This document shows, one piece after another, positions 12,815-61,849 of a stretch of 64,000 bases of DNA; within the stretch, counting starts at the first letter, position 1, and each line of letters begins with the position of its first letter. The position numbers were made by a program, and so were the translations under genes. The notes under the pieces are model-generated. The model searched no databases. It was not told the origin of the DNA and saw only the letters and a program-made list of their open reading frames with translations. Source of the DNA: a virus (taxonomy: Duplodnaviria; Heunggongvirae; Uroviricota; Caudoviricetes); the IMG/VR virus record IMGVR_UViG_2645727901_000008; one strand, 5' to 3'.

Positions 12815-12828
12815 TTTTCTAACACAAA
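12815..12828. promoter_or_regulatory. C1-type operator-like site TTTTCTAACACAAA
   Basis: Member of a recurring TTTTCTAACA motif family; immediately upstream of ATG 12840. Confidence 0.5.
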
Positions 12829-12839
12829 TCATTAGAGTT

Positions 12840-13232
12840 ATGGCGTATCGAATCTTTGTTTCGTATAAAAATGGCGCTAAGAGCCACTCTCTGAACACAA
12901 CAAGTCGCTTTCTTGTTGAGGCGCAGTTGGCATCAATTCTTGCCGAAAGTGAGATACTCTCGCTCGCTGAACGGATCGTTATCCAGTTTTCTGGTAGAGA
13001 TATACTCAATGTCCCCGCCCTCACCCCGGCCTCCGAAGTTATGGAATCAATTAAATGGCCTGTATGCGGATGTCCTGCCAGGGTTGAAGAGCCGGTAACA
13101 GCAACGCTCTACATGCCGAAAGCAGTAAGAGATTGGCTTGCTATGGTTGGTAATGGGAAAGTCAGTGCTGGACTTCGCAAGTTAATTGAAATGGCAGATA
13201 TTCCTGAGTTAAAAAACGCATGGCGACAATGA
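12840..13232 (+). CDS. Hypothetical protein, operator-controlled
   Basis: ATG 12840 downstream of operator motif. Confidence 0.4.
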   Translation: MAYRIFVSYKNGAKSHSLNTTSRFLVEAQLASILAESEILSLAERIVIQFSGRDILNVPALTPASEVMESIKWPVCGCPARVEEPVTATLYMPKAVRDWLAMVGNGKVSAGLRKLIEMADIPELKNAWRQ

Positions 13233-13248
13233 GTAAACAAGGGACAAA

Positions 13249-13707
13249 ATGAGCCACGTTAACCCATCAAAAACACAATATCGCTTAATGCTGGCGATCG
13301 CGTCAGCTATACCAACCAGCCTGAATCCCCCGGCAGGCTATCCCGCTGTTGTTGATGATTGTTTTCAGTATTACGGAGAAGACATCCTGAGCCAGTCCAA
13401 AGCGCTCAAGCAGTTATGTAAGGCAGGTATTCTTCACTGTATCGGAGATCCGGACGATTTTGTTGTTATGCTGGCGGATCGTGACTCTTTTCTACTGTCC
13501 TGGAAAGCCGGTGCGCGCGAAGCACGTTTGGGGAATGGTATTGGTTACATAGACTATAGTGATTGTCCGCTGGCATTTGCTGGTGGATATATGCATTGGC
13601 ATGAGCGAAATAGAGGCCGTCAGCGTCAGTATCGCTTGAGTGACTTTAACGTCTGTCACGGTTTCGAAGAAGCTGACAGCCAGGACATCTGGCTTCAGGA
13701 GCCTTGA
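13249..13707 (+). CDS. Hypothetical protein
   Basis: 152-aa ORF with ATG start. Confidence 0.45.
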   Translation: MSHVNPSKTQYRLMLAIASAIPTSLNPPAGYPAVVDDCFQYYGEDILSQSKALKQLCKAGILHCIGDPDDFVVMLADRDSFLLSWKAGAREARLGNGIGYIDYSDCPLAFAGGYMHWHERNRGRQRQYRLSDFNVCHGFEEADSQDIWLQEP

Positions 13708-14027
13708 TCCCCCTTCCCTTCCCAAATCTCCCTGTTTCTTTGGTTATTCAGTGCGTTTCGTTGGTTGCATTCGTCGATCGTGCTGAATAACTGTTCAGCG
13801 TATGTCGGATACTTGTTTAACAGCACTGGCGTGTCCTCTGGCACTAAACAAGGGGAGTAATCAATCAGATTTGCCTGCGGCTTGCTGGTGGCTTCTACGG
13901 TAATTTTCACTGGCACGCTGGTTGATGGCTTTTGCCCGTTCCCGCTGCATCCTGATAACGTCATCAGGCACACGCACATCGTTAATCCCAGCACGGCGTA
14001 ACGCATTTTCAAGGCGAGTGATTTCAT
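13695..14027 (-). CDS. Outer-membrane spanin subunit (Rz1-like lipoprotein)
   Basis: Signal peptide with lipobox LSGC; overlaps the 3-prime end of the i-spanin gene in another frame. Confidence 0.6.
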   Translation of the reverse strand: MKSLALKMRYAVLGLTMCVCLMTLSGCSGNGQKPSTSVPVKITVEATSKPQANLIDYSPCLVPEDTPVLLNKYPTYAEQLFSTIDECNQRNALNNQRNREIWEGKGDQGS

Positions 14028-14334
14028 TCTGGCTTTCCTCTCGTTGTTTGATTAGGTTGGCATTCAGTTCTGCTGTTTTGCGCTGGTACTCCTTTTCCAG
14101 TGCTTTAATTCTTTCGTTTTCGGTCAGCATGGCTGAGCGAGCGTTCTCACTTAACTGTAATGCGGTAGAAAGCGTGTTGTTCGTGCTTTCCAGTTGTGAT
14201 TTTGAGTCTTCAAGCGATCGGACATACCTGATGTGTTCGATAACTGCCGTCGTTGTTCGGTAAATTCCAGAAATGGCTAAAAGCGCAATTACAATCAAAA
14301 TTATCTTTTTCAAAACCATCCTCTCCAGGTTCAT
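13861..14334 (-). CDS. Inner-membrane spanin subunit (Rz-like)
   Basis: N-terminal TM helix then long coiled-coil; overlapped by the o-spanin ORF. Confidence 0.6.
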   Translation of the reverse strand: MNLERMVLKKIILIVIALLAISGIYRTTTAVIEHIRYVRSLEDSKSQLESTNNTLSTALQLSENARSAMLTENERIKALEKEYQRKTAELNANLIKQREESQNEITRLENALRRAGINDVRVPDDVIRMQRERAKAINQRASENYRRSHQQAAGKSD

Positions 14335-14389
14335 TTTTGGTGTTAAACATGTACCAATTTACATCCTTTTGTGTGCCTAAGTGGTGTTT

Positions 14390-15196
14390 CTATGGTTCCT
14401 TTTTGGTGTTCTTTTGGAGCGCATCGATAACGCCTTGTGGCATGATTAAACTGATTGCCGGACTCATTACTGCATCATCCAGTAGAGAACCAGTTAACGT
14501 GATGGCGACAGCGTTCTCTAAACCTCTGGTTGCCTGAGTGGTTGACGTTTTAATGCGACCTGTAAGGGCTACGACACCCTCACTTGCTGAGTTAATTTCG
14601 GAGAGTAAAACTTCGGCGGCTGTCACTGCTTCCCGTAAAGCATCAATTTCATCCTGAGTAATGACTGGAGCCTGAGCGCCCCCAGCACCACCCTGTCCAC
14701 CATTGCTTTCACCACCACCAGCACTTCCGGTAGCTTCAATTTTTGCGTTAATGGCGTTCATGGCGGTTTTCAGAGCATCAAGTTTTAGCGCCGTCAATGC
14801 GTCCGTCAGAGATTGCGGAATGGAAACATTCCCCATTCCCTCAACAAGGGCGAAAGCAGGTATGGGGGTCAGCTCGTTACCTTTTGCGTAGCATTCCCAG
14901 CCAATCTTCATCTGTAACAGCTCTGATGGTTTGGTGTATGGGGAAAGAGAATCAGCCAGTAATGAAGACGCTTTGCTGGCCTCATTGAGCTGTTCAGAAA
15001 AGCCAAGCAATTGAGTAGTCCAGGCCGAAACAGAATCAGGATAGGTTTTATCGGCGTGAACTATTCCCTGTATGGCGCTGGCGAGCGATGAGGCTTTTAC
15101 AGAAGCTGCCCGGCTTATGGTTATAGATTCTGGTGTAGAGATACCGGCATCTGACAGAATTTTGAAGGCTTTAACTTCACCTATTGAATCAAGCAT
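14390..15196 (-). CDS. Hypothetical alpha-helical protein coupled to the PAAR gene
   Basis: ATG at 15196 overlaps the PAAR stop (TAATG). Confidence 0.45.
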   Translation of the reverse strand: MLDSIGEVKAFKILSDAGISTPESITISRAASVKASSLASAIQGIVHADKTYPDSVSAWTTQLLGFSEQLNEASKASSLLADSLSPYTKPSELLQMKIGWECYAKGNELTPIPAFALVEGMGNVSIPQSLTDALTALKLDALKTAMNAINAKIEATGSAGGGESNGGQGGAGGAQAPVITQDEIDALREAVTAAEVLLSEINSASEGVVALTGRIKTSTTQATRGLENAVAITLTGSLLDDAVMSPAISLIMPQGVIDALQKNTKKEP

Positions 15197-15480
15197 TATG
15201 CAACCTGAAAAATATCCTCGCCGTTGGCGATAACAGAACCACAAGAAAGCGGATCGCCTACACAGACAACTCCCTTTCCACCTATCGAAAACCATACTCG
15301 CGTCGATACAGCTGCCCCTGGATGTGCACTGTTACCGTCAGTGTGACTGGGAAACATGGCACCATCTACAACAACTGGCTTACCGTTAACGGTGAACCAG
15401 GGAACGGTTTCAGCTACCAGTCGCGGCGGAAATCCTCCGTGACCAGAACAAAGGGTGTCGCTGGTGGCTATTGCGCTCAT
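15196..15480 (-). CDS. PAAR-repeat spike-tip protein
   Basis: 94 aa with PAAR-like repeats (GHGG, SHTDG, HPGAAV); AGGAGG RBS. Confidence 0.7.
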   Translation of the reverse strand: MSAIATSDTLCSGHGGFPPRLVAETVPWFTVNGKPVVVDGAMFPSHTDGNSAHPGAAVSTRVWFSIGGKGVVCVGDPLSCGSVIANGEDIFQVA

Positions 15481-15565
15481 TCTTCACCTCCTGGTTATCC
15501 TCCTATTGTCATCACTTTGTTATTTCGTCATTCAAACGGAGAGTTAAATTTCGGAATATTTTTGT

Positions 15566-15724
15566 ATTCTCAATTCGTTCTCAAATAAATCTCACTGTCA
15601 GACCATCATTCGGTGGGTGATTAAGATATTCTCAAAATAAACTCAACAATCGCTCTTTTTATCTCGTTTGGTGTGGATTTTTGGGTGCTTCTCTTTTAAA
15701 ATTACATTTTGGTTCTCAAATGTG
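15566..15724. repeat. parC-like centromere: iterated TTCTCAA(A/T) repeats upstream of parM
   Basis: At least four TTCTCAA copies between 15566 and 15724. Confidence 0.5.
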
Positions 15725-15745
15725 TCTCAGAAGTGGAGCAAGAAG

Positions 15746-16702
15746 ATGCGCATTTTTATCGATGATGGTTCAACCAATATCAAAATGCTGTGGGAGCACG
15801 ACGGGGAAACTCGCACTCACATCAGCCCTAACAGCTTTAAGCGCGGATGGTCAGCAACATTTGGTGCTGGCAAGCCATTTAACTATGTCATTGACGACGA
15901 AAAGTATTCGTATGATTTGATCTCGCCAGATGTTCTGCCGACGAATAACGTGGAATGGCAATACAGCCCGCTTAACGTCCTGGCTGTTCACCATGCCCTG
16001 CTGACAAGTGGCATTGAGCCGCAGGAAGTAGAAATTGTGGTTACGCTGCCACTGGCGGAGTTTTACGACGACGACGCGCAATACAATCTCGATAACATCG
16101 AGCGCAAGAAAGCCAGCCTTATGCGCCCCGTCACGCTGAATAAAGGCAATGTATTCACGATTAAGAAAGTTACGGTACGCCCGGAGTCTATTCCGGCAGG
16201 AATTGGTCTGTGCGACAATCTGAACCCTGCCCACTCTGTTCTTATCGTCGATTTGGGTGGAACTACCCTTGATGTTTCAATGGTCGCCGGGCAAATGACG
16301 GCAGTTTCCCGTGTTTTTGGCGATTCGAATCTTGGTGTATCACTGGTCACCAGGGAAGTAAGGCAAGCACTTGCCAGAGCCAATACCGAAACGTCAAATT
16401 ACAATGTCGATCAGCTCATTATTAACCGCCACGATGAAGATTATCTGAACGACAATATCAATGACCCATCAGCGGTTGGTGATGTGAAAAAGGCCATTGC
16501 CGCAAGCATTGACCGTCTGCGTACCCGCGTTCTTGATGTGATTGGCGACTTTAAAGGATATACGCATGTCATGGTGATCGGTGGTGGCGCACCGCTGGTG
16601 GCAGATGCAATTCGCGAGCAAGTTAATATTCGTGATGACCGTTTCTTCGTGGCGGATGACCCGCAACTTGCTCTTGTTCATGGCCTGAAAGCAATCGGTT
16701 AA
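15746..16702 (+). CDS. parM: Actin-like plasmid segregation ATPase (ParM/StbA family)
   Basis: Actin-fold motifs IFIDDGSTNIK, IVDLGGTTLD, MVIGGGAP; GGAG RBS. Confidence 0.75.
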   Translation: MRIFIDDGSTNIKMLWEHDGETRTHISPNSFKRGWSATFGAGKPFNYVIDDEKYSYDLISPDVLPTNNVEWQYSPLNVLAVHHALLTSGIEPQEVEIVVTLPLAEFYDDDAQYNLDNIERKKASLMRPVTLNKGNVFTIKKVTVRPESIPAGIGLCDNLNPAHSVLIVDLGGTTLDVSMVAGQMTAVSRVFGDSNLGVSLVTREVRQALARANTETSNYNVDQLIINRHDEDYLNDNINDPSAVGDVKKAIAASIDRLRTRVLDVIGDFKGYTHVMVIGGGAPLVADAIREQVNIRDDRFFVADDPQLALVHGLKAIG

Positions 16703-16715
16703 CGAGGTAATGTCC

Positions 16716-17054
16716 ATGTCTCAGGAACGTAAGAAAGTGATGATTTATCTTCGCCCAGAGGCTTATGCCAATGAAAAGGCGGCGAGCGAGAAGATAAAAA
16801 AACATAGCGATATGGCAAGAACCGCATTGTTGGCAGGGCTTGCGCTGGGAGAAGTCGATAGCAGGCTTCCAGGATTACTGGCTTCCCTGCTGACCGAAGA
16901 CAATAACCCGGAGCTGATCCGAAAAATGCTGGCATCCTTCCTGGAACTACCAGCTGCGGTTGAGGAGCGCCCTGCCTCCATTGAGCCAGTGAAGGAGCAA
17001 GTTGTTGCCAAAAGCGCGTCGGCGCGTAATCTTGCTGATTCTCTACCTGATTGA
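16716..17054 (+). CDS. parR: ParR/StbB-like centromere-binding adaptor
   Basis: Small ORF immediately after parM, ATG 16716 with GAGG RBS. Confidence 0.5.
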   Translation: MSQERKKVMIYLRPEAYANEKAASEKIKKHSDMARTALLAGLALGEVDSRLPGLLASLLTEDNNPELIRKMLASFLELPAAVEERPASIEPVKEQVVAKSASARNLADSLPD

Positions 17055-17071
17055 TGGTCAAAACTCTATTT

Positions 17072-17097
17072 TAAGGCTGCAAATTGCAGCCTTTTTT
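17072..17097 (+). terminator. Rho-independent terminator after parR
   Basis: GGCTGCAA-ATTGCAGCC hairpin followed by TTTTTT. Confidence 0.6.
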
Positions 17098-17106
17098 GTT
17101 CCTTTT

Positions 17107-17300
17107 TGGTGTTAAAATGGCATCAAAGCGACACCAAATGGGAGTCGTTAATGTACTGGTGCATACTTGGTGCTAATTTAGTGCTATTCAGGCGCAAAAC
17201 GTGTACCAGTATCCATCGGATTTGATGTTATACTTCCGGCATTAAGAATGGTGCTATTGCTGTACCGTTGATGTGTAAATGTGGTGCTGTTTTAGTGTAA
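17107..17300. repeat. Centromere-like iterated GGTGCT(A)TT repeats upstream of parA
   Basis: At least five GGTGCT-containing repeats; similar GTGCCATAATG repeats and a CGTGTACCAGT box recur at 18270-18335. Confidence 0.45.
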
Positions 17301-17326
17301 AAATAGAGCCAAAATAAAGCCGAGGT

Positions 17327-17974
17327 ATGGACATGATTATCCTGGTAGCAAGTCAAAAGGGAGGCTGTGGCAAGTCAACCACCAGCGTCAATATTTGTGC
17401 CGAGCTGGCCCGAAAAAACAAAGATGTCGTCTTGATTGATGCTGATAAGCAGGGAACGGCAGCTCGATGGGCGTCAGACCGTAATTCGTCCGAAGTGACA
17501 CCAGTTATTCATTGCGTCCAGAAGTTTGGAAATATTCGAGAAACTCTGCTCGATCTTAACAATCGATATGAATACGTGGTTGTTGATACCGCAGGTCGTG
17601 ATAGTAAAGAGATGCGCACAGGTATAACGGCGGCGGATATTCTATTGGTTCCATTCAGGCCGTCTCAGCCAGATTTGGACACGCTGGCACACTTTGTTGA
17701 GGTGTTTGAAGAGGCTTTGGATCTGATGCCTAATCCCAATATTAAGGCGTGCGCAGTCTTAACTATGGCCCCGTCAAATCCGGTTGTGAATGAAGCAAAT
17801 GAGGCCAAAGAGTATCTGGCAGAATATCCGCAACTGAAATTGCTGAAAACCATTATTCGCGATCGCAAGGTTTACCGCGACTGCATGGCTGAAGGAAAGG
17901 GTGTTGTTGAGATGGATAACGGTAAGGCGAAAGGTGAAATTCAGATGTTAGTTAAGGAGTTGCTAAGTGATTAA
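17327..17974 (+). CDS. parA: ParA/ParF-type partition ATPase (small deviant Walker-A)
   Basis: KGGCGKST deviant Walker A motif, 215 aa. Confidence 0.8.
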   Translation: MDMIILVASQKGGCGKSTTSVNICAELARKNKDVVLIDADKQGTAARWASDRNSSEVTPVIHCVQKFGNIRETLLDLNNRYEYVVVDTAGRDSKEMRTGITAADILLVPFRPSQPDLDTLAHFVEVFEEALDLMPNPNIKACAVLTMAPSNPVVNEANEAKEYLAEYPQLKLLKTIIRDRKVYRDCMAEGKGVVEMDNGKAKGEIQMLVKELLSD

Positions 17975-28256: not shown

Positions 28257-28524
28257 TGTCCTTCCTCCACGGATGACGGATACAAAAAAAGGCCGCACAT
28301 GGCGGCCTGCTTTGGCGTTATGACTCCCTACCGCGCTTCGGCTGAAAGTTAATCGTCAAAAGAACCTTCAACGGGAGCCGTTAGCGCGATGGATTATGTG
28401 CAGTTTGTGATTTCCAAAATAGTGTCAACCACTTTTTGTGGATTTTATTTTTTGACCGAAATTTGGCCTAAATCATGTTGATGTAGTTAATTGTTTTTAT
28501 AACATAAAACTTCATTTTGTTTAC

Positions 28525-32314: not shown

Positions 32315-33241
32315 TTAACTAACAATCCAGTCCATAGCAACCATATCCTCTGGCGCTAAATCAATAGCATGGATTTTCCCATCCCGGATAGTGCGCCAGT
32401 GCTTCCTTGATCCGCCTTCGGGCCATACCCATACACCTTCAGACCATGAGGCGCGACGGCATACCGTTGCATATCCACTTCTGATCTTCTCTCTGGCGGT
32501 ATGCAGTGACAGATTATCTTTTGGGATTTCCGGTAAAGGATGATGGATTGCCTGAAACAGCCCCATCTTGGGATGATACCAGCGTTTGTTGCGTGGTTCT
32601 GCCTCCGACATAACCTGCTTGAAGGCTTTCTGGAAGGGGGCCAGGGCCACAATGGAGCGTCGCGCAAGCAAACCATCTGGAGTTAAAAACTCATGCGTAT
32701 CGGTGGGAATCCGGAAAGCGTTAACCAGGTTGCGACATTTGGCTTCGGTCAGGCCACATTTCGCCGCCAGCTGGCGGTAGCCAATGTAGCCTTCCGGAAT
32801 ATTGCCTTTCTTTATTTGCTCGAGTGTTTCAGCGACCATCGATACTTGTGCTGATACCTCGGCTACCTGGGCATTTACGGCGTTGATCCGGCGTTCATGC
32901 TCAAGATGCATTTGCGCCATTTCAGCCAGGATTTCGGCTTTTGATTTTAACTGTACCCGGGCATTCTCCAGTTCGCGCCAGCGGTCCACCAGCCGGGCGG
33001 TGAATTCGGGAGAGAGCTGCGCGACGACGACAATACTATCGCGCTTGCCTTGCTCGCCTTCGAAGACGTAATAGCTCGCCGGGCGGCCTGCGGTGGGCTT
33101 TTCCTCAATTTGAGGAAAAGATATTACGCCCCGTTCCGCCAGGTGTTCAATGGTGCGTTTAACGTTATCAGGGCGCTTACCTACCAGTTCCGCGATCTCA
33201 ATGCTGGTCATTGTCGCTTTTTGAGAGATGGACAGATTCAT
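32315..33241 (-). CDS. ant: Antirepressor-like protein (Rha-like N-terminal region)
   Basis: N-terminal TSIEIAELVGKRPDNVKRTIEHL; start overlaps the upstream small ORF stop (ATGA); GGAGG RBS. Confidence 0.55.
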   Translation of the reverse strand: MNLSISQKATMTSIEIAELVGKRPDNVKRTIEHLAERGVISFPQIEEKPTAGRPASYYVFEGEQGKRDSIVVVAQLSPEFTARLVDRWRELENARVQLKSKAEILAEMAQMHLEHERRINAVNAQVAEVSAQVSMVAETLEQIKKGNIPEGYIGYRQLAAKCGLTEAKCRNLVNAFRIPTDTHEFLTPDGLLARRSIVALAPFQKAFKQVMSEAEPRNKRWYHPKMGLFQAIHHPLPEIPKDNLSLHTAREKIRSGYATVCRRASWSEGVWVWPEGGSRKHWRTIRDGKIHAIDLAPEDMVAMDWIVS

Positions 33242-33456
33242 CAGTGCGCCTCCACGCAGTTCATCGGCAGATTCCAGTAATTGAGGATCTCCATCGCATC
33301 AAGAGTGAAGCGAGCAGCAAAAATGCAGGGTTCTTCGGGAAGGTATGAGCGCGCCTCTGCTTCGGTAGCAGCCATGACGCAGATATACAGGTGTTTTTGG
33401 CAGGAATAGAAACGCCAGATAAATTCAGAATGAGTTGGGGTAGGGATAGTAGCCAT
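33241..33456 (-). CDS. icd: Icd-like small protein upstream of ant
   Basis: 71-aa ORF with AGGAGG RBS, positioned like P1 icd. Confidence 0.4.
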   Translation of the reverse strand: MATIPTPTHSEFIWRFYSCQKHLYICVMAATEAEARSYLPEEPCIFAARFTLDAMEILNYWNLPMNCVEAH

Positions 33457-33631
33457 ATTGGCAGCCTCCTTTGACTAAGTTAAGGAGCTACCGCGTGAGG
33501 TTCCAATCTCAATGGCGGTAGCACTGACTGGGTTGGAACTACCGGCGTCAAAGGGAACCGGCCTGCCTTTCGGCAGCCCAGCCAGCACTACCATTGATCT
33601 CTGAGCTAAACGCTACGTATGGCTGTGCGAT

Positions 33632-33720
33632 GGCATGACACAAAAAAAGACGCTTTCGGCGTCTGTGTCGCCTTTGACATTATCCGGGGTTCCAATCCCG
33701 GCACCCGTTTTTCTAAGGTG
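33632..33720 (-). ncRNA. Candidate c4-like antisense RNA
   Basis: Promoter-like region with operator-like GTAGAAATATA, then on the minus strand a hairpin (AGACGC-CGAAA-GCGTCT) plus U-run about 80 nt downstream; GGTTCCAATC-type elements recur in the icd leader. Confidence 0.35.
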
Positions 33721-33772
33721 CCGTAGAAATATACCCCACGATAATGCCAGGGCGCAACAGTCAGTATTTTAT

Positions 33773-33937: not shown

Positions 33938-34256
33938 TTGACACCCCCAGCGCGAGTAAAGAATGCAGATTATCGCGTGAGTGGCGGACAACGAGTGATG
34001 GGAAAAGACAGTAGCTGTTCATAGTGTAGTGACTCCTTGCTTTCGGAGCCGCCATCGACTGTTCCACGGTCTGGTGGCGGCGCAATAAAGGCTGGAACAC
34101 CGTGAGTCAACGGGGGCTTTTCAGCCACCTATATTGCACCGCCATAGGTATAGCGGCGGCAATAATACGAAAAACTAAACAGTTTGTCTCAAAAAGTTGA
34201 CCGGTGTGCCAATCGGTAGTGAATGTACATCGGAGAAATTTACAATTCAACTTAAA

Positions 34257-34271
34257 ATGTTAGAAAACTAA
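34257..34271. promoter_or_regulatory. C1-type operator-like site ATGTTAGAAAACTAA
   Basis: Nearly identical to the site upstream of the c1-like gene; faces the sim-like/c4/icd/ant region. Confidence 0.45.
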
Positions 34272-34846
34272 TTTATCAATTCAATCGCCATCTGATACAA
34301 CGTCATTTCATCGGCATTGTGCCGCATGAAATCTGCTTTTCCGCCTATTTTTCCGTCAGCATGAACAGGGACCAGCCAGGGATATTGTTCTCGGACCTCG
34401 GCTGGCGCTGCGTACTGGTGGTGCCATTTACACAAAGGGAGGACATATTTATGCGCGTTCTCTGCCGTTCTCCCGAAGATATGGTGCAGGGATACTACTG
34501 GGCTATGTTGTCCGTGAATATGGCAGGCAATGCAGGGGAGAGTACCGATAGCGGTCTGTATCCGGCGTTCATCAGCTGTGAGTGATCTGCCCTTCAGGCC
34601 GCGTGACGTGCGTGTTTTTTTGGGCGGAGCGGATACAGCTTTATCTTTTCTCCGCTGTTCATATTGCTTTGCTTTTTCAATTTTCTTTTGCCGATATTCA
34701 GGCGATGCGGCTTTTTCTCTCGCTCGCTGCTGCTGGCGTTGAGCTTGTTGAAGGCGCTTTGCCCTTTGTTCCTCTCGCCAGGCCGGGTCAGCCAATTTTT
34801 GCATGGCTTTTTGTCTCTGTTTCTCCCAATAGCTCTGTTTCTGCAT
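34268..34846 (-). CDS. ref: Ref-like HNH endonuclease
   Basis: Lys/Arg/Gln-rich N-terminus then HNH-like core CIACHIHG...HHIFGR...CKWHH. Confidence 0.7.
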   Translation of the reverse strand: MQKQSYWEKQRQKAMQKLADPAWREEQRAKRLQQAQRQQQRAREKAASPEYRQKKIEKAKQYEQRRKDKAVSAPPKKTRTSRGLKGRSLTADERRIQTAIGTLPCIACHIHGQHSPVVSLHHIFGRTAENAHKYVLPLCKWHHQYAAPAEVREQYPWLVPVHADGKIGGKADFMRHNADEMTLYQMAIELIN

Positions 34847-34893
34847 GATGGCAGTCTCTTACTTTTCAATGATTTTTCTATGATTGATCAAAA

Positions 34894-34929
34894 CTGTTAG
34901 ATATTCAAAATTGATTTTCTAACACAAAA
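34894..34929. promoter_or_regulatory. Pair of C1-type operator-like sites in the divergent ref region
   Basis: CTGTTAGATAT and TTTTCTAACACAAAA. Confidence 0.5.
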
Positions 34930-38205: not shown

Positions 38206-38228
38206 TCAAATCATTTACGCACTCAAAA

Positions 38229-38263
38229 TGCGTTAGAACATTGATTTTAGTTTTCTAACATAT
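38229..38263. promoter_or_regulatory. Inverted pair of C1-type operator-like sites
   Basis: CGTTAGAACA ... TTTTCTAACATAT upstream of ATG 38303. Confidence 0.5.
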
Positions 38264-38302
38264 TATTTTACCACTCGGAACAAAACAGAGTCGGTATGCA
38301 TT

Positions 38303-49120: not shown

Positions 49121-49174
49121 AGCACCCTCCGAAATAGGCGAGGGTACTTTACAGCAAAGATAACAATCTAAAAA

Positions 49175-49190
49175 GATGTGTTAGAAATTT
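49175..49190. promoter_or_regulatory. C1-type operator-like site
   Basis: GATGTGTTAGAAATTT between the cre stop and the next gene start. Confidence 0.45.
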
Positions 49191-49193
49191 AAT

Positions 49194-50222
49194 TTATGAA
49201 TCCATCAGGCGGCTATTAGCCCCCACAGACACGCCGCCACGGCGCAGATACCGCATAAGTGTTTCCGGTTTCTTCCAGGTTCCTTCCTGCATGATCTCCA
49301 CCATAGACACCTGCTTTTCAGCCATATCGATAGCGGCCCCGACACGAGCACTATGCCCGGTCCACGTCCGGTATCTCCCTTTGTTTGGCGTGGCATCTCT
49401 TTTATTCAGCAACACCCAGGCGTCGCTGAATATTTTCTCCATTGCAGGTGCAGTAAGGGGAGTTGTCGTAATCCTGGCCTTATTGCTACGGTGTATCGGC
49501 GGGAACAGCACCGCGTCAGGATGTTCACGAAGCCCGGAAACATCCAGCCAGTCATTCAGCACTGCGGTAGTGCGACGGGAAAGCACCTTATCAAGCCCGG
49601 CGGCGGTCGTTATTGTCTTCGTGTGTGAAATATGTAGCGTGACAGTGTCACCTGTTTGGTCCAGATCTCCTACACGAATACGCGAGATTTCAGACATTCG
49701 CATCAGCGTATTGTATGCAACGAAGAGGAAAGCCCGGTTACGCAGGTCCACCAGCCGTTCTGACCTGGACAACAGGACGTCGAGCAGTTTCAGATCGTCC
49801 CACCGCAGCGGTATAGCCTGGCCTGTTCGTTCGCCTTTTTCCGTTGCCGCTTCGCGCCGGATGCGCCGCATAGCCAGAGAAACACTTTTATCATCCGAAA
49901 GTGGCGGAAGGCCACAATGCGAAAGCAGCATGTTAAGCATGGCGTAGTGCTTATCAATGGTGGTCGAAGCCAGATCAGCATCATGCAGCTGAAGAAAATA
50001 CTCGCGGGCCATCTCTGGTGAGATCGGGAACCAAGCGAGCTGGCGAGCGTGGCACCATCGCGCCCAGGAGTGAAACACTAACCGGAGATCGCGCAAAGTA
50101 TTCGGCGCGTAAGCCCCCTGGTCATTCATGAACCGCATAAAGTTTTCTGCGGCCTCCTGGTACTCTTTGCCAATGTTGCGCAGAAAACCACCGGAGCTGC
50201 CAGAGATAATTAATTCACTCAT
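49194..50222 (-). CDS. cre: Cre-like tyrosine site-specific recombinase
   Basis: Extended similarity to P1 Cre as recalled (HSWARWC, WFPISPE, SVSLAMRRIRRE, WTGHSARVGAA, LMRYLRR). Confidence 0.9.
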   Translation of the reverse strand: MSELIISGSSGGFLRNIGKEYQEAAENFMRFMNDQGAYAPNTLRDLRLVFHSWARWCHARQLAWFPISPEMAREYFLQLHDADLASTTIDKHYAMLNMLLSHCGLPPLSDDKSVSLAMRRIRREAATEKGERTGQAIPLRWDDLKLLDVLLSRSERLVDLRNRAFLFVAYNTLMRMSEISRIRVGDLDQTGDTVTLHISHTKTITTAAGLDKVLSRRTTAVLNDWLDVSGLREHPDAVLFPPIHRSNKARITTTPLTAPAMEKIFSDAWVLLNKRDATPNKGRYRTWTGHSARVGAAIDMAEKQVSMVEIMQEGTWKKPETLMRYLRRGGVSVGANSRLMDS

Positions 50223-50493: not shown

Positions 50494-50594
50494 AATTTTC
50501 TAAATTGGATGACAAAAAAATGCATCTTGATCCTTTACTCACCCTGTTATTCGGCATAGATTTGTCATAGTAATTTTATGTTAGAAAACTAAAT
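50494..50594. promoter_or_regulatory. Operator-like sites upstream of the c1-like gene
   Basis: ATTTTCTAAAT (about 50494) and ATGTTAGAAAAC (50578-50589). Confidence 0.45.
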
Positions 50595-50606
50595 CGAGTA
50601 GGAATA

Positions 50607-56537: not shown

Positions 56538-56547
56538 AATTAGTGTT

Positions 56548-56661
56548 TTATTTTCGACGCCTGAGATTCTTCGCGACTTGTTCTACGCCGTATACGATCA
56601 CAAGTAGAAACAGCAAAAACCATCCAGGGTTCTTATCGATATACGTCCAAAAATCCATCAT
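56548..56661 (-). CDS. Tiny membrane peptide (37 aa)
   Basis: Hydrophobic core; start overlaps the upstream stop. Confidence 0.3.
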   Translation of the reverse strand: MMDFWTYIDKNPGWFLLFLLVIVYGVEQVAKNLRRRK

Positions 56662-56822
56662 GAGTTCCTGAACGCACCTTCAATAATCGGCAATAGCAAT
56701 ACCACAGCTACTGAAACTAATGCCCCATCAGCCAACACCGACATCACTTTGCTGGTGAAATCCACCAGTACGGACAAAACGAGAAAGCCAATGGCGCCCG
56801 CAATACGCGCCTTGCCAATCAT
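56658..56822 (-). CDS. Small membrane protein (54 aa)
   Basis: ATG overlaps the TerB-like stop (TAATG); two hydrophobic segments. Confidence 0.35.
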   Translation of the reverse strand: MIGKARIAGAIGFLVLSVLVDFTSKVMSVLADGALVSVAVVLLLPIIEGAFRNS

Positions 56823-57256
56823 TACAGATAATCTTCCACACGAAGGCCAAGACGGCGACCAACCTCTTCCAGAACCTTATGCTCCGCAGGTTCGATTTCA
56901 CCATCTGCTTCAGCGATCGTGAGCATGTTCACGAAGACTTCTTCCGCTTCTTTGGGATCGTTTTTGATATCTTCAATTTCGCGGAGGATATTCATGCGAC
57001 CAACACGGAAACCAGCTTCCAGTTGCTCAGTAAAACGGGTGATTGTTGCGGTAATTTCGTTGCCAAAATGACTTAAGCGAGGATTAGAGCGGACAAGCTG
57101 ATCAAGTTTCGCTGTTTCTTCCTTTTCGATTTCACCATCTGCGGCAGACACCAGCAAACAGCCACCGATGATGGCCTCCATCAGATCGCGATTCTCAACC
57201 CTTTTCAGCTCTACTTTTGCTGAAGCGACTTTCTTACCGAAAAATTTACCGAACAT
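56822..57256 (-). CDS. TerB-like tellurite-resistance family protein (P1 TciA-like)
   Basis: TerB-like acidic repeats ADGEIEKEE and ADGEIEPAE; ATG 57256 with GAGGG RBS. Confidence 0.7.
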   Translation of the reverse strand: MFGKFFGKKVASAKVELKRVENRDLMEAIIGGCLLVSAADGEIEKEETAKLDQLVRSNPRLSHFGNEITATITRFTEQLEAGFRVGRMNILREIEDIKNDPKEAEEVFVNMLTIAEADGEIEPAEHKVLEEVGRRLGLRVEDYL

Positions 57257-57523
57257 TGGTTTTCCCTCAATAAACATGACGTATTTATTAGGTTGCGGTG
57301 CCTGGTGCCTCCAGGTGACGTTAACCAGTTAACAATTAACGCCGGGATTTTTGTCTTCACAATTAAGGAGGATTGTTTTAACTGTTCCGCGTGCGCTTAG
57401 CCGCATTCACCGCAATGGTAAGAGCACTTGGCTGGCTGGGCGGCGATGACGCCTGTACGCATTTGGTGAACCGGTTCTGCTTCCGGCATTCGCTTAATTA
57501 GCCAAATACTCTTAACGTTGCAC

Positions 57524-57610
57524 TGGCGGAGAGTAATGGAATCGAACCATCATCGCTTGCGCAATGGGACGGTTTTCAAGACCGCTTGAGCACCATGCTC
57601 CCTACTCTCC
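57524..57610 (-). tRNA. Long-arm tRNA-like gene, anticodon loop CUUGAAA (Ser-TGA-like), atypical D/variable arms
   Basis: 7-bp acceptor stem, TTCGATT T-loop, CCA encoded; anticodon stem-loop resembles tRNA-Ser(UGA) but other arms are non-canonical. Confidence 0.5.
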
Positions 57611-57746
57611 CGTTATTGTGGCGACCGGTGCTGATCTCCGGCTTGCGGTTATTTCAGACTCTCACGGGCGTTTAATTGCCCCGCCGAACAGCTCTTTTCC
57701 GCAATAGCTGCAATGTCTTTCGCGCATCAGCCTGCGCATTCACCAC

Positions 57747-57834
57747 AATGTTGAGAACACTGGTTGTCACGCTGCAACGCAACATTTATTCGTAGATTGG
57801 GATATGACCCCGTTACGCCAGTGTTCTCAACGTT
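57747..57834. repeat. 17-bp inverted repeat (16/17) separated by 54 bp
   Basis: AATGTTGAGAACACTGG ... CCAGTGTTCTCAACGTT. Confidence 0.5.
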
Positions 57835-57983
57835 GTAGTGCCGGTTACGGTTCCGGCCAGGCCTCTTCCTCAACGGGTTGTTCTCCATACGGACTACCGT
57901 TTATTGGTCGTTCCTGCGGTTTATGTTGTGAAGCCAGATGCTTATCTTCTGGTTGCTTCAAAGAGCTGCACTTCATCACAACG

Positions 57984-58056
57984 GTAAGGGTACTTCGTAG
58001 GGATTCGAACCCTCTGCCAAGCACGGCGATCTCCGACGTCGCAAAATACCCTTACC
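57984..58056 (-). pseudogene. Degenerate tRNA-like element
   Basis: GGTTCGAATCCC T-loop and 7-bp acceptor pairing, but no canonical anticodon arm and no CCA. Confidence 0.3.
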
Positions 58057-58064
58057 TGTTGCGT

Positions 58065-58140
58065 TGGTGCCGATTAACGGGATCGAACCGCTGACCATTC
58101 GCTTACAAAGCGACTGCTCTACCAACTGAGCTAAACCGGC
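58065..58140 (-). tRNA. tRNA-Thr (TGT)
   Basis: Canonical cloverleaf, anticodon loop TTTGTAA, CCA encoded. Confidence 0.85.
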
Positions 58141-58144
58141 AATT

Positions 58145-58231
58145 TGGTGGGGAGTGATGGAGTCGAACCACCCGAGTCGCAATGACAGTAGATTTACAGT
58201 CTACCCCGCTACCCCTACGGACTAACTCCCC
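58145..58231 (-). tRNA. tRNA-Tyr (GTA), long variable arm
   Basis: Anticodon stem-loop GTAGA-CTGTAAA-TCTAC as in E. coli tRNA-Tyr; CCA encoded. Confidence 0.75.
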
Positions 58232-58236
58232 TAAAG

Positions 58237-58313
58237 TGGCGATGGTGGGTGGATTCGAACCACCGACCGACAGCTTAGAAGGCTGCTGCTCTATCCTACT
58301 GAGCTACACCATC
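58237..58313 (-). tRNA. tRNA-Arg (TCT)
   Basis: Canonical cloverleaf, anticodon loop CTTCTAA, CCA encoded. Confidence 0.85.
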
Positions 58314-58895: not shown

Positions 58896-59383
58896 ATGCG
58901 GCACTCTCTCCGCCCGTCACCGTTCTGTCTCGGTTGTCGCGTTTGCCACGCCAGCCGTAACGAGGTTTAAAGTCTTTGCACGTTTCCATCACTCGACTGC
59001 CGTCTGTGGCTGTTCGTTGCAGCGGGGGTGCCTCCCCCTGGGGATATCCCCGGCCTTACCCCATTCTTTCAAGACACAATGCAAGGCCGCATCCGCATAG
59101 GTGCATTACCGCAACATTAAGGAGACTTAGGGCAAAAGGTAATCGCCACAAAAAAAATCCCTATGCCTCCTTAATGTTGAGGATGTGCATTGATGATGAT
59201 TCGATGCGGCGAGTCCCGTTACTCTCTGCCGGACCATCATCAATGAACATCTTAAAAAGACCTTCCGTGGCTCAACATGTCTTGTCGTTTACTCCGTAAA
59301 GTGCTCTCTCTGAAACCACTTTACGCACTAAACCTGCTGAACTTTGGCTTGCTCGGTGCCAAAGCGAGTCCCTGTATGTATGT

Positions 59384-59398
59384 AATTTTCTAACACTT
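59384..59398. promoter_or_regulatory. C1-type operator-like site
   Basis: AATTTTCTAACACTT. Confidence 0.45.
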
Positions 59399-59540
59399 TA
59401 ATTTGTTATTTGCTGGTGGGCGAACAACAACCAATAAGTGACTATCAAGCCCAGCAAGCGAAATGTGGCAACGCTCCACCAGCAAGGAAAATTCTAAGTT
59501 AAGTTACTCTCACAATCAATACGTTCGTTTAGTGAAATTA

Positions 59541-59555
59541 GATTTCTAACATTTT
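59541..59555. promoter_or_regulatory. C1-type operator-like site
   Basis: GATTTCTAACATTTT at the 3-prime end of the 406-aa gene. Confidence 0.45.
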
Positions 59556-60774
59556 ATTTCCCATAAAGATCTTCTACGCCCCCATTCTTCTTGTCCCATT
59601 CGTTAGCCCACACCCGGCAGGCATCAATAATTTCTTGACGACGGTCGCCCTGCATAAAGGGGATGCTTTCATGAAAACTACTTGGGATACAGGCCACGCT
59701 GAATACGGTATCAAACGCAGTCTGTTTGATAGCTTCCAACGTCTCTGGGCGCATTTTCAATTCATCGATCGGCGCATCCTTAGAGTCCATAATCCGGCGA
59801 TGCAGGCGCGGGAAATCAGTCTCCAGGTACGCCATAATTTTATCTGCCAGGCATTCGTCTATATCGGTATTCCAGTCCGTTTCGAAGCCGGGCAGGCGAT
59901 AGTAAAGCGGCGTTCCCCATACTGATGGGATCACATCCATCGTCAGCAGGCGGTTGGTTCTAATTTGTTGATGGTAATTAGCCGTCAACAGAGCTTCACC
60001 ACGCTGACCAGTCTCCGCAACCAGACCATGCGGGTACTCATGGATATAGGCAATAGCATCCACCCCGTCATACATGAGCGGGAATGTCTCTGGCCTTTGT
60101 CCCATACCACAAGCGCGGTTCAGATCATGACCAAGCTGTGAGCACTCTCGTTTCAGCGTTTCAATAATGTTCTGCGCTGTTGCTAACTTTTTACGCAGTG
60201 TGACGCCTTCGCCTTGATACTTAATGCATTGCTGATTCAGCTCTGTTAAACGCTCTTTTAGTTCCCGACGCTCTCTTTTCAGCGCACGGTTATCCTTCTC
60301 CGCAACATCCAGTCGTTTTGACAGACTGGCTGGATAGTCTTTTTTGTAACGACTCAAATCGGCTTCTGCGGATTTGCGCAGTGTGTTTGCCTGTTCAAGA
60401 CGCGCTTCCAGATTACCGATCTCACTACGCATATTCGCGGCAAATTGATTAACAGCATTGCCAAGACTTTCAACTGTCGCTGATACGCCTGTGACTTGTG
60501 AAAAACGGATCAAGCCATCATTAACGGCTTGTTGATATCCCTCAAACTGATCCACCAGCTTGTTGTAATCAACCGTCCCTTCCTCAAGTAGCTGGTTGAT
60601 CTCCGCGACCAGGTTATCAGTAGTGGCAATGACGCTCTCATGTAACCGTCTGGACAGGTCATCCCCCGGATTCCGCTTTTGAATAAGGGCGATCTGTGTC
60701 CGCAGCGTTTCAATCGCGGCTGAGATGATTTCCAGATTAGAAGTATCAGTTTGTTGACTCATTGCAGTTCCCAT
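59554..60774 (-). CDS. Operator-controlled coiled-coil protein
   Basis: ATG 60774 (or 60762) just downstream of the operator; long N-terminal coiled-coil. Confidence 0.5.
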   Translation of the reverse strand: MGTAMSQQTDTSNLEIISAAIETLRTQIALIQKRNPGDDLSRRLHESVIATTDNLVAEINQLLEEGTVDYNKLVDQFEGYQQAVNDGLIRFSQVTGVSATVESLGNAVNQFAANMRSEIGNLEARLEQANTLRKSAEADLSRYKKDYPASLSKRLDVAEKDNRALKRERRELKERLTELNQQCIKYQGEGVTLRKKLATAQNIIETLKRECSQLGHDLNRACGMGQRPETFPLMYDGVDAIAYIHEYPHGLVAETGQRGEALLTANYHQQIRTNRLLTMDVIPSVWGTPLYYRLPGFETDWNTDIDECLADKIMAYLETDFPRLHRRIMDSKDAPIDELKMRPETLEAIKQTAFDTVFSVACIPSSFHESIPFMQGDRRQEIIDACRVWANEWDKKNGGVEDLYGK

Positions 60775-60790
60775 TGTTTTTTGCAAGATT

Positions 60791-60806
60791 AGTTTTCTAA
60801 CATATT
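60791..60806. promoter_or_regulatory. C1-type operator-like site
   Basis: AGTTTTCTAACATATT. Confidence 0.5.
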
Positions 60807-60844
60807 TTATTAGTATGAGAACAAGAGCGAAAGATGTGATAAAC

Positions 60845-60871
60845 AAAAAACCCGCTAATCGGCGGGTTTTT
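60845..60871. terminator. Bidirectional rho-independent terminator
   Basis: A-run, CCCGC-TAATCG-GCGGG hairpin, T-run. Confidence 0.55.
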
Positions 60872-60877
60872 GAGCGG

Positions 60878-61192
60878 TTATTGTGTCATTGCCTGGTAGA
60901 TAAAATACACGATGCATACCGGTACGATAGCCCATTGCAGCAATGAAAGCAGCCTCATGGCTGTCATGGGAGTAACTCCATCTACGTATTCCTTCTCTGA
61001 CATTTTCCCTAACCAACTAACCGACAAAAGGGTCGAGTTCTCCCCCATTTCCAGCTCCCTGAGGGCTTCCCGGATTAAAGGCGCTGTTACCACCTTGCGG
61101 GCAGTGTTGAGCGTAATGCTCCGCGTCCTCCCGGCGTCATCGGCAAACGCCAGGTTCACATGATATTTTTTGCTCAATGTACAAACTCCCAA
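60878..61192 (-). CDS. Small protein with C-terminal TM helix
   Basis: 104 aa; LLSLLQWAIVPVCIVYFIY. Confidence 0.35.
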   Translation of the reverse strand: MGVCTLSKKYHVNLAFADDAGRTRSITLNTARKVVTAPLIREALRELEMGENSTLLSVSWLGKMSEKEYVDGVTPMTAMRLLSLLQWAIVPVCIVYFIYQAMTQ

Positions 61193-61374
61193 TCATTGGC
61201 TTTCGCGCTTTCCGGGGTAATGCATACCTTGTCGCCGGTAACTATGTTTCGGGCTTCTAATGCCCCATCATCCATCTTTTTAAGCTCTATACAGAAAGAA
61301 TGAGGCCATGAGCAGCGACGAGCAACAACGTTAGCACCAGCAGGGATAAGTTCAGCCACGTTAAGTAAACGCAA
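61174..61374 (-). CDS. Small hypothetical protein
   Basis: 66-aa coupled ORF. Confidence 0.3.
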   Translation of the reverse strand: MRLLNVAELIPAGANVVARRCSWPHSFCIELKKMDDGALEARNIVTGDKVCITPESAKANDWEFVH

Positions 61375-61388
61375 AACGATTTCTCCGT

Positions 61389-61832
61389 TTAATCAAGACA
61401 AACATATTCCGTGATAGCTTTTATGGCTTCATCGGCACTGCGCGCCTCAAAGCAGTAATAGCCTGCTTCCGTGAGGCGAGTCATCCAGACGAGCTGTTCG
61501 GGAGTCAGACGGTTTCTCCCGTGCTTCATCTCAATGCGCATTCCGTGATACCCACCACGAGCAAGGTCAATAGAAAGGTCCGGATAGCCCTTCTTCTGAC
61601 CTTCTGCCACCATCTTAATGGCTGTCCTTTTGCCTCTCAGGCCGCCGTTCGGTGTTGAGTGTGTGTGCTCATACACGTATCGCATGTTGCGATACAGCCA
61701 ATCCAGAACGCGAACCTGTTCGTAATGTTCGTAATTCCGTTTTAATAAGTCAGGATTTCTTTCTAACTCTCTCAGTGCAGCAGCGTGCGGGGATATTTCA
61801 GAATACGCACTATGATGCCTGCGTCTTCGCAT
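61389..61832 (-). CDS. VRR-NUC-type (PD-(D/E)xK) nuclease
   Basis: GYPDLSIDL...HGMRIEMK core; ATG 61832 abuts the operator. Confidence 0.65.
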   Translation of the reverse strand: MRRRRHHSAYSEISPHAAALRELERNPDLLKRNYEHYEQVRVLDWLYRNMRYVYEHTHSTPNGGLRGKRTAIKMVAEGQKKGYPDLSIDLARGGYHGMRIEMKHGRNRLTPEQLVWMTRLTEAGYYCFEARSADEAIKAITEYVCLD

Positions 61833-61834
61833 CA

Positions 61835-61849
61835 AATTTCTAACACAAA
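61835..61849. promoter_or_regulatory. C1-type operator-like site
   Basis: AATTTCTAACACAAA immediately upstream of the VRR-NUC start. Confidence 0.5.

Follow-up and report, generated by a model that had tools for sequence, protein, structure and literature searches.

The window analysed here, the whole 64,000-nucleotide stretch of viral DNA, is by its sequence a phage D6-like plasmid prophage related to P1, with the same gene order as Escherichia phage D6 (MF356679 / NC_050154) and ~95% nucleotide identity to it where aligned. It belongs to an already sequenced lineage, which corrects any reading of it as an unknown element. Along it lie a gene for RdgC/hrdC (Pfam RdgC match, E=5e-103), ref, an immI-like anti-repressor module (of which D6-type elements carry two, each with icd and an antirepressor), a DUF968/pdcB-like gene, a cre-like recombinase gene, a c1-like gene, lpa (Pfam Lpa match, E=5e-57), tRNA genes, a 406-aa gene that is the counterpart of the D6 pmgS homologue, and a VRR-NUC, pmgM-like gene; the gene names used in the initial annotation were right. 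Dispersed between them are copies of a short asymmetric motif (Table 1), described in that annotation as a family of at least 13 operators.

This abundance is far from what chance would give. The exact 10-mer TTTTCTAACA occurs eight times on the two strands of the window against 0.19 expected, and none of 100 shuffles reached eight copies; the 12-mer TTTTCTAACAYA, allowing at most one mismatch, occurs 13 times between 12815 and 61847 (0.92 expected; shuffle maximum 4), recovering in place every copy of the initial annotation and giving a clear answer to the comparison with a shuffled background that it had proposed. A weight matrix of 22 columns (consensus AAATTAGTTTTCTAACAYAAAT) finds 16 sites scoring 15 bits or more in the window, the additional ones lying at 34890(-), 38226(-) and 59535(+). 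Its score distribution is bimodal, and dinucleotide shuffles yield 0.8 sites at 12 bits or above, but the matrix was derived from the sites that it scores, and only the exact-word counts are independent of them. A measure of conservation in sites relative to their flanks did not discriminate, since most of the flanking sequence is coding.

None of the 16 cores lies in coding sequence, in a window of which only ~14% is non-coding; the apparent exception, the core at 12815, falls inside a mechanical ORF whose real start, at 12840, is backed by a full-length match to phrog_7830. Around half of the sites lie 4-21 nt from a start codon, and for these the earlier description of copies immediately upstream of start codons holds; it does not hold for three others, which abut the stop codons of ref, the cre-like gene and the pmgS-like gene. 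The inverted pairs are real: three of them (20871-/20889+, 34890-/34908+ and 38226-/38244+) have an identical offset of 18 bp, with the geometry TTAGA-N16-TCTAA and centres 21 bp apart, and a weak fourth lies at 55005-/55023+.

Table 1 Motif sites and immI-like features of the window, with P1 counterparts and conservation in relatives (L015, L016 and L017 are metagenomic or assembly relatives)
Feature	Position	Strand	Score and setting	P1 counterpart	Relatives
Single operator-like site, ATTTTAGTTTTCTAACACAAAT	12808..12829	+	30.2 bits; 10 nt 5' of 130-aa gene 12840-13232, beside capsid gene		D6 at 54201, Shigella plasmid; Pantoea element, same position, different motif
Paired site	20871-20892 / 20889-20910	- / +	26.3 + 25.7 bits, offset 18; just upstream of RdgC/hrdC gene 19957-20862(-)	Operator upstream of uhr-hrdC	D6 and Shigella, offset identical
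Single site, C-to-A variant core TTTTATAACATA	28488..28509	+	22.5 bits; upstream of gene 28525-29148(+), in gap beside mat-like gene		D6 at 72195, variant identical
immI-like module (isrK-like RNA, C4 antisense RNA, icd region, anti-repressor Ant)	32315..33721	-	Downstream of 34253 site, same strand
Ant anti-repressor	32315-33241	-	phrog_63, E=2e-62
C4 antisense RNA	33511-33598	-	Rfam C4, 77.1 bits
isrK-like RNA	33643-33721	-	Rfam isrK, 62.7 bits
Single site	34253..34274	-	29.1 bits; abuts ref stop codon; heads leftward isrK-C4-icd-ant (immI-like) unit	Operators at end of ref and before c4-icd
Paired site	34890..34929	both	15.3 + 30.1 bits, offset 18; between ref (34268-34846, minus) and rightward early operon from 34964	Oref, annotated upstream of ref
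Paired site	38226..38265	both	18.5 + 29.9 bits, offset 18; upstream of DUF968/pdcB-like gene 38303-39298(+)		D6, Shigella, L017 (repressor 45% identical)
Single site	49174..49195	-	27.2 bits; overlaps stop codon of cre-like recombinase gene; heads leftward operon (48776-49120, dut, others)	Operator-like site 18 nt after cre	D6, Shigella, L016, L017; Pantoea, with other motif
Single site	50574..50595	-	29.7 bits; 11 nt 5' of c1-like start codon, opposite strand	Oc1a-e upstream of c1	Every relative examined; identical in D6 at 194-215
Candidate repressor, 345 aa	50607..51644	+	Remote homologue of P1/P7 C1, with C-terminal helical extension
Site and weak partner	55005-55026 / 55023-55044	- / +	26.3 + 8.5 bits, offset 18; ~75 nt upstream of lpa (54539-54931, minus)	Operator 71 nt upstream of lpa	D6, L015, L017
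Single site	59379..59400	+	25.2 bits; between pmgS-like gene and tRNA cluster (56462-58313, minus, downstream of site)	Paired operator ahead of tRNA-tci genes
Single site	59535..59556	+	26.8 bits; abuts stop codon of pmgS-like gene (59554-60774, minus)		D6 at 9066, Shigella, L015
Single site	60786..60807	+	28.6 bits; 12-19 nt 5' of 406-aa pmgS-like gene, opposite orientation	Two operator-like sites upstream of pmgR-pmgS	D6 at 10315, Shigella, L015
Single site	61829..61850	+	22.3 bits; at start of VRR-NUC (pmgM-like) gene 61389-61832(-), opposite orientation	Operator upstream of pmgL-pmgM, opposite orientation	Shigella and L016; not in D6

As with c1 in P1, the c1-like gene has the cre-like recombinase/rox site on one side and pacB on the other, and its product is collinear with P1 C1, although at only 20% identity (BLASTP, 239 aa, E=8e-8). 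The two proteins have phrog_1678 in common and Pfam PF27008 (Phage_P7_repressor_C1) is found on all homologues, while the NCBIfam phage_rep_C1 model scores it at 23 bits, far below its equivalog cut-off of 500; relative to P1 C1 the C-terminal extension amounts to roughly 60-100 aa. Other plasmids of E. coli and Salmonella encode the window allele at 100% identity, and it is 89.9% identical to the repressor of D6, where gene 1 already carries the annotation ‘prophage repressor, similar to P1 C1’; no operators are annotated in the D6 GenBank record. For the predicted structure (AF2, pLDDT 85), the only whole-chain PDB match is Tus, with a TM-score of only ~0.4 from a single model built on an 11-sequence alignment. 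Tus is a monomer that binds asymmetric DNA and P1 C1 also acts as a monomer, and the Tus-like predicted fold is consistent with monomeric recognition of asymmetric DNA. Tus and the repressor have no sequence similarity (hhalign probability 0.3%), Ter and operator sequences are not significantly alike, and nothing suggests a role in replication-fork arrest. Lambda-type CI is likewise a temperate-phage master repressor, responsible for maintaining the lysogenic state and for immunity to superinfection, but it is of an unrelated protein family, a helix-turn-helix dimer acting at symmetric sites clustered at two operators (OL/OR), whereas the window sites are many, asymmetric and genome-wide.

In P1, C1 controls repL and lpa and has ~22 dispersed asymmetric 17-bp operators of consensus ATTGCTCTAATAAATTT (PMC8546580), which is the consensus given in the initial annotation. 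The P1 operator places, as given by the P1 record together with a scan for the consensus, are c8 after cre, ref, the end of ref, ssb, c4-icd, kilA-repL, uhr-hrdC, the position ahead of the tRNA-tci genes, pmgL-M, pmgR-S, pmgT, lpa and c1-coi. The suggested likeness in distribution is borne out, as at least 10 sites occupy such places, with targets in common at ref, the end of ref/c4-icd-ant, hrdC, lpa, c1, after cre, pmgS, pmgM, the tRNA operon and, in D6, repL. P1/P7 and the window element moreover have homologous repressors encoded at corresponding genomic positions; in both, the sites are numerous, dispersed, asymmetric and non-coding, come singly and in pairs, and have the same orientation relative to transcription at most loci.

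The two systems differ in the operator itself. No P1-type operator occurs in the window at up to three mismatches from the P1 consensus, and P1 contains no clear D6-type site, only a single marginal match of 12.4 bits. To this extent the motif is distinct from the P1 consensus, as had been claimed, but the two are related, matching at 10 of 17 positions when aligned on a common TCTAA core and differing at the other seven (GCTCTAATAAA in P1 against TTTCTAACAYA in the window). Paired sites are divergent in the window but convergent in P1 (TCTAA-N8-TTAGA), with a different spacing as well, and no homologues of Coi and Lxc, both of which tune C1 in P1, were found in the window. These two differences, in the pairs and in the tuning proteins, weigh against reading the sites as C1-type operators.

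Comparisons among relatives bear on which protein reads the motif. D6 has a counterpart with the same core for 15 of the 16 window sites, the pmgM-proximal one being absent, and the same core recurs at orthologous places in relatives with repressors only 45-72% identical, namely a Shigella plasmid (72%) and L015, L016 and L017 (45-52%). In a Pantoea element with a repressor 29% identical, orthologous places instead carry a third motif, ATTCTAAAT (8 observed against 0.17 expected), and D6-type sites are absent; TCTAA is common to the D6-type, P1 and Pantoea motifs. We consider it probable that the C1-like protein is the master lysogeny repressor of the prophage and that the sites are its operators. 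Every computational test agrees with the proposal of a C1-type network of operators whose specificity is not that of P1, although the link between protein and sites comes from sequence comparison. Some other element-encoded or host protein (such as a small early-operon regulator or a nucleoid protein) might bind the motif, with the C1-like protein recognising something else; many proteins of the element are without known function, and the AT-rich motif resembles many nucleoid-protein sites in composition. We regard this as unlikely: gene by gene, the sites fall where P1 has C1 operators; the Pantoea element has a different motif although host factors would be conserved among Enterobacterales; and Chi is the only other enriched word family, with no further over-represented motif dispersed through non-coding DNA that might be the operator of the C1-like protein.

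Most sites share the direction of the downstream gene, which could also be expected if early genes had a promoter class of their own with the motif as part of its -35/-10 or spacer signature, and TAACAT resembles a -10 box, with TTGAAT or TTGATG lying 16 bp upstream at 34253 and 28488. Half of the sites, however, read TAACAC, a poor -10. Those at 59379, 59535, 60786 and 61829 face away from the nearest gene, which also counts against the operator reading, as does the placing of the c1-proximal site on the strand opposite to c1. Inverted pairs of exact geometry occur at three loci, and neither hrdC nor the 38303 gene has a divergent gene beside it. A standard promoter scan of 34150-35150 calls no promoter with at least 9/12 matches over the sites, and a laxer scan of this AT-rich DNA gives 8/12 at best, so that promoter overlap is weak, as with the hexamers TTGATT-16-TAATAT across 34890..34929. 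A promoter signature in place of a repressor site is consequently a very unlikely reading; in P1 the equivalents are proven operators that overlap promoters (PMC8546580), and the two roles are therefore not exclusive. It is scarcely credible that the cre-like recombinase Dre has the copies as secondary (pseudo-rox) targets: the rox-like site at 50374-50405 (TAACTTTAAATAAT...ATCTAAAGTTA), preceded by TC, does produce TCTAAC, but with the motif matrix a rox arm reaches no more than 3.3 bits, the sites lack two 13-14-bp arms around an 8-bp spacer, and the Pantoea and P1 comparisons track the repressor and not the recombinase.

Most likely, the motif represents putative binding sites through which the element's own, distant version of C1 keeps lytic genes off, an expected trait of a known phage group and not a new kind of system. 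In a lysogen, the C1-like protein would occupy ~16 dispersed asymmetric sites of ~19-22 bp with core TTTTCTAACA in the window, and two or more others close to repL, where the element extends beyond the window, presumably binding as a monomer like P1 C1 and in a Tus-like manner, with each of the three or four fixed-geometry pairs taking two repressor molecules. By covering the core promoter or transcript start, the bound protein would prevent transcription of the late-gene activator lpa, the isrK-C4-icd-ant anti-repressor unit, ref and the divergent early operon, hrdC-methylase, the pdcB-like and dut operons, the tRNA unit, pmgS and pmgM, with c1 itself and the cre-like recombinase gene probably also among the targets. 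Since the predicted specificity differs from that of P1, heteroimmunity of the element to P1 and P7 is expected at immC.

The dispersed repeats flagged in the initial annotation prove to be a genuine motif family. Their core, TTTTCTAACA, occurs 8 times in the window against an expectation of 0.19, and TTTTCTAACAYA, with one mismatch allowed, occurs 13 times against 0.92 expected. Alignment of the 13 copies reveals information outside the 12-mer, giving the consensus AAATTAGTTTTCTAACAYAAAT, and with the resulting 22-column matrix 16 sites in the 64 kb score 15 bits or more, whereas shuffled windows give 0.8 sites scoring 12 bits or more; an empty gap in the score histogram separates sites from background. 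The sites added by the matrix to the 13 copies are the pair partners 34890(-) and 38226(-), plus 59535(+). All 16 site cores fall in non-coding DNA, which makes up about 14% of the window; the seeming coding exception, 12815, lies upstream of the real gene start at 12840. These asymmetric, non-coding sites ahead of lytic and accessory genes are dispersed over the element. The proposal that the sites sit immediately upstream of start codons holds for six genes, at distances of 4-21 nt; at other genes the distance is 40-80 nt. A reading of the repeats as P1-type late promoters can be dismissed, given that the LPmat -22 box pattern AAGTNACTT shows no enrichment (2 observed, 0.93 expected) and bears no relation to the motif. 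The words TACCGGTA and GCGAGCGAG are also enriched and were dropped, being mostly within genes. The most over-represented word family in the window is Chi (GCTGGTGG / CCACCAGC); the word CCACCAGCA, for example, is found 22 times where 1.7 are expected. Chi also ranks first in every relative examined (the D6-like relatives and the Pantoea and Enterobacter kobei elements).

Both monovalent and bivalent forms are present among the window sites. The bivalent forms are inverted pairs, as originally suggested, three of them clear and one weak, with an identical 18-bp offset and a plus-strand reading of TGTTAGAAAA-CTA-AWWT-TAG-TTTTCTAACA. Their geometry differs from that of P1, in which pairs are convergent (TCTAA-N8-TTAGA) with an 11-bp offset, whereas the window pairs are divergent (TTAGA-N16-TCTAA), their centres lying 21 bp, or two helical turns, apart.

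Published work on P1 counts 22 dispersed operators bound by C1, whose consensus ATTGCTCTAATAAATTT is asymmetric, and places repL and lpa under C1 control (PMC8546580). The P1 record marks C1 operators at ref and at its end (Omat), and in five places around c1/coi/cre. A consensus scan of a P1 genome yields further sites, namely ahead of c8 (18 nt past cre), ssb, c4-icd, kilA-repL and uhr-hrdC, as a pair that follows dmt and precedes the tRNA-tci genes, and at pmgL-M, pmgN, pmgR-S, pmgT and lpa. The suggested likeness to the distribution of P1 C1 operators is borne out, with window sites corresponding to these P1 operator places (see table), and P1 counterparts exist also for the sites of Escherichia phage D6 around repL and at its second icd-ant unit.

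Table. Operator-like sites and associated features of the window, with P1 counterparts
Feature	Position	Strand	Locus or placement	P1 counterpart	Rfam score
Inverted pair	20871/20889		hrdC	uhr-hrdC	
Inverted pair	34890/34908		ref	Oref	
Inverted pair	38226/38244				
Weak inverted pair	55005/55023		lpa	lpa	
Site	34253	-	end of ref, heads isrK-C4-icd-ant	Omat / c4-icd	
Site	49174		after cre-like gene	c8 site after cre	
Site	50574		c1	Oc1a-e	
Sites	59379, 59535		ahead of tRNA cluster	pair after dmt	
Site	60786		pmgS	pmgR-S	
Site	61829		pmgM	pmgL-M	
Ant anti-repressor, 308 aa	32315-33241	-			
C4 antisense RNA	33511-33598	-			77.1 bits (gathering threshold 45)
isrK-like sRNA	33643-33721	-			63 bits
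cre-like gene	49194-50222	-			
rox-like site TAACTTTAAATAATGCCAATTATCTAAAGTTA	about 50374-50405		between cre-like gene and c1		
c1-like gene (candidate repressor)	50607-51644	+			
pacB-like gene	51670-53178	-			
pacA-like gene	53178-54542	-			
lpa	54539-54931	-			
tRNA genes (Met, Ser-tga, Thr, Tyr, Arg-tct)	56462-58313	-			
86-aa ORF	62021-62281	-	P1 lxc position (darB-ulx-lxc)		

The correspondence extends to a second immunity region of the immI type (in P1, c4 antisense RNA-icd-ant), which lies under an operator-like site, the minus-strand site at the end of ref being upstream of both C4 and Ant. The C4 RNA and the isrK-like sRNA are arranged one after the other, preceding the icd region and Ant, and the D6 record contains a second icd-antirepressor module, outside the window. 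Five tRNA genes are clustered in the window, and the D6 record annotates only three, on its own plus strand. P1 possesses Coi, an anti-repressor adjoining c1, and the co-repressor Lxc, whereas P1 queries find no homologue of either in the window or D6 (tblastn, best E 0.78), and Lxc went undetected in a D6-like plasmid (PMC6799933). At the lxc position the window has an 86-aa ORF of phrog_6844, a different PHROG from that of Lxc. This ORF is dissimilar to Lxc, and may be the co-repressor's positional analogue.

Homology to the P1/P7 C1 repressors is found in the product of the c1-like gene. This 345-aa protein shares 89.9% identity with the product of D6 gene 1, which carries the annotation 'prophage repressor, similar to P1 C1', and copies 100% identical to it exist on other plasmids. 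With P1 C1 it shares 20% identity over 239 collinear residues (BLASTP, E=8e-8; residues 7-237 of the candidate and 8-242 of P1 C1), both proteins strongly match phrog_1678, and PF27008 (Phage_P7_repressor_C1) is present in 12 of 12 homologues. Relative to P1 C1 the candidate carries a C-terminal extension, and it falls outside the P1 C1 equivalog NF041318 (phage_rep_C1), scoring 23.1 bits against a cut-off of 500, where P1 C1 scores 607.5. P1-like gene order is also kept, with c1 between the lox/cre-type region and pacB, and lpa past pacA. The rox-like site differs at one position from the rox sequence, and TC precedes its left arm, giving TCTAAC.

By megablast, the window belongs to the D6 lineage of P1-related plasmid prophages. 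Its aligned parts are 94-96% identical to D6 (MF356679), and identity to non-mobilizable plasmids of about 90 kb from Escherichia coli, Salmonella and Shigella is 95-98%. The genes follow the order of the D6 annotation; the window covers about 64 kb of a roughly 90-kb element, with the repL region outside it. D6-like plasmid prophages are common in these hosts, and the family of the candidate repressor is represented in 157 plasmid records. Repressor alleles on plasmids are 100%, about 90% (the D6 type, and the commonest), 81%, 72%, 70% and 68% identical, and the operator core is the same for all alleles examined; one possibility is that the allelic differences play a role in anti-repressor specificity. 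Repressor-carrying fragments are found also on resistance plasmids. In pK91 of Salmonella Typhi (NZ_CP029871), a conjugative IncFIB multiresistance plasmid, a D6-like fragment at 14000-21900 holds hot, humD, phd-doc, dut, the cre-like gene and the c1-like gene with its operator, and is truncated by IS26 inside pacB. As it holds only a fragment of the element, pK91 was kept outside the regulon comparison. Its stranded repressor gene might confer host immunity to D6-like phages.

The motif is conserved among relatives at orthologous places. D6 carries it there, with two additional sites flanking repL (21260 and 22462). In a plasmid of Shigella dysenteriae with a 72% identical repressor, TTCTAACA is found at 15 sites, among them three pairs that have the 18-bp offset. 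Three relatives obtained by protein search, with repressors 45-52% identical, keep TTTTTCTAACA ahead of c1, lpa, pmgS and the VRR-NUC and DUF968 genes, and past the integrase gene. The window, D6 and the Shigella plasmid share the 5' flank AAATTAG, which creates a partial internal dyad, TTAG-N4-CTAA, in each single site; it is not kept in the three more distant relatives, although TTTTTCTAACA is. Comparing the identity of sites and flanks against D6 and the Shigella plasmid is uninformative, as the 150-bp flanks are mostly coding. An E. kobei element with a 24.5% identical repressor yields no clear dispersed motif by exact-word enrichment over 40 kb.

That the motif departs from the P1 consensus is confirmed by the count of ATTGCTCTAATAAATTT in the window, which is 0 even at up to 3 mismatches; in the opposite direction, P1 contains one marginal D6-type match (12.4 bits). 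Nevertheless, AGTTTTCTAACACAAAT and ATTGCTCTAATAAATTT agree at 10 of 17 aligned positions, with TCTAA as common core, and when they are aligned in this way, sites at most loci point in the same direction relative to transcription in both phages (with it at ref, lpa, c4-icd, repL and after cre; against it at pmgM). A Pantoea plasmid prophage (CP009882; repressor 29% identical) has no D6-type site. Its own word, ATTCTAAAT, occurs 8 times against 0.17 expected, an exact-word count that is the only independent figure, the Pantoea matrix seeds having been hand-picked. It lies past the integrase stop, between integrase and c1, and at lpa, pmgS and the gene next to that for the capsid; a convergent pair stands upstream of RdgC. 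Across the P1 supergroup, motif and repressor therefore vary in step around a constant TCTAA: D6-type relatives keep the motif, and the Pantoea element and P1, with distant repressors, have others. The same Pantoea plasmid holds, at 39480-41320 (76.6-78.5 kb of the record), 8 ATGTTTATAAACAT-like and 6 ATGTTTGCAAACAT-like palindromes within 2 kb, a cluster that looks like an iteron or partition-site array.

Taken together, these sequence comparisons support reading the sites as the putative C1-type operators of a D6-like plasmid prophage, with a distinct immunity specificity; the C1-like network of non-P1 specificity originally proposed draws its support from repressor homology, positional orthology and the change of motif with a distant repressor. 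By analogy with P1 C1, the best-supported reading of its action is repression by occupancy, in which the repressor would cover the promoter or the transcript-start region. Only weak hexamers overlie the sites, for instance at 34908 (TTGATT-16-TAATAT) and 34253 (TTGAAT-16-TAACAT), and a standard promoter scan calls no promoter over the sites. An operator set of this kind is to be expected in a phage lineage already sequenced. The sites are not annotated in the D6 GenBank record, and the literature searched describes neither D6 operators nor the motif; the D6 genome paper (Gilcrease and Casjens 2018) may already list them.

More interesting leads than the operator set itself are the TCTAA specificity series and a Tus-like fold predicted for the repressor. 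An AlphaFold2 model built on an 11-sequence alignment (pLDDT 85.1, pTM 0.56) has whole-chain PDB matches to one family only, E. coli Tus bound to Ter DNA; for this single predicted model Foldseek gives E=1.4e-7 to 3.3e-6, probability 1.00 and a TM of about 0.4 over 304-305 columns, the next match having E=0.066. The BFVD viral structure library contains no significant match to the model, Pfam returns no match of the candidate to PF05472 (Ter) at E up to 10, and hhalign finds no C1-Tus sequence link (probability 0.3%). Likeness between operator and Ter sequences was considered and rejected, 2072 of 5000 shuffles being equally good. Tus binds its asymmetric 23-bp site as a monomer, and P1 C1 binding is monomeric; the resemblance therefore fits monomeric C1 binding. 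TerB lies directly upstream of tus. We tentatively propose, at somewhat less than an even chance, that C1-family repressors, including P1 C1, may be Tus-fold monomers reading long asymmetric operators via inter-domain beta strands, that their specificities (P1 GCTCTAAT, D6 TTTCTAAC, Pantoea-type ATTCTAAA) would vary round one conserved TCTAA contact, and that the D6 branch may have gained a C-terminal helical hairpin that sets the 21-bp divergent pairing. No paper in the literature searched connects C1 with Tus.

If true, the Tus-like prediction would explain in structural terms the recognition of asymmetric sites by monomeric C1, and the P1, D6-type and Pantoea-type operators form a natural specificity series around the TCTAA core. 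Knowledge of the operator word aids the design of reporters and of curing or induction tools for the D6-like lineage, and renders predictable the immunity group of an element and mappable its repressed regulon, comprising lpa, the anti-repressor, ref, the hrdC-methylase genes and the tRNAs.
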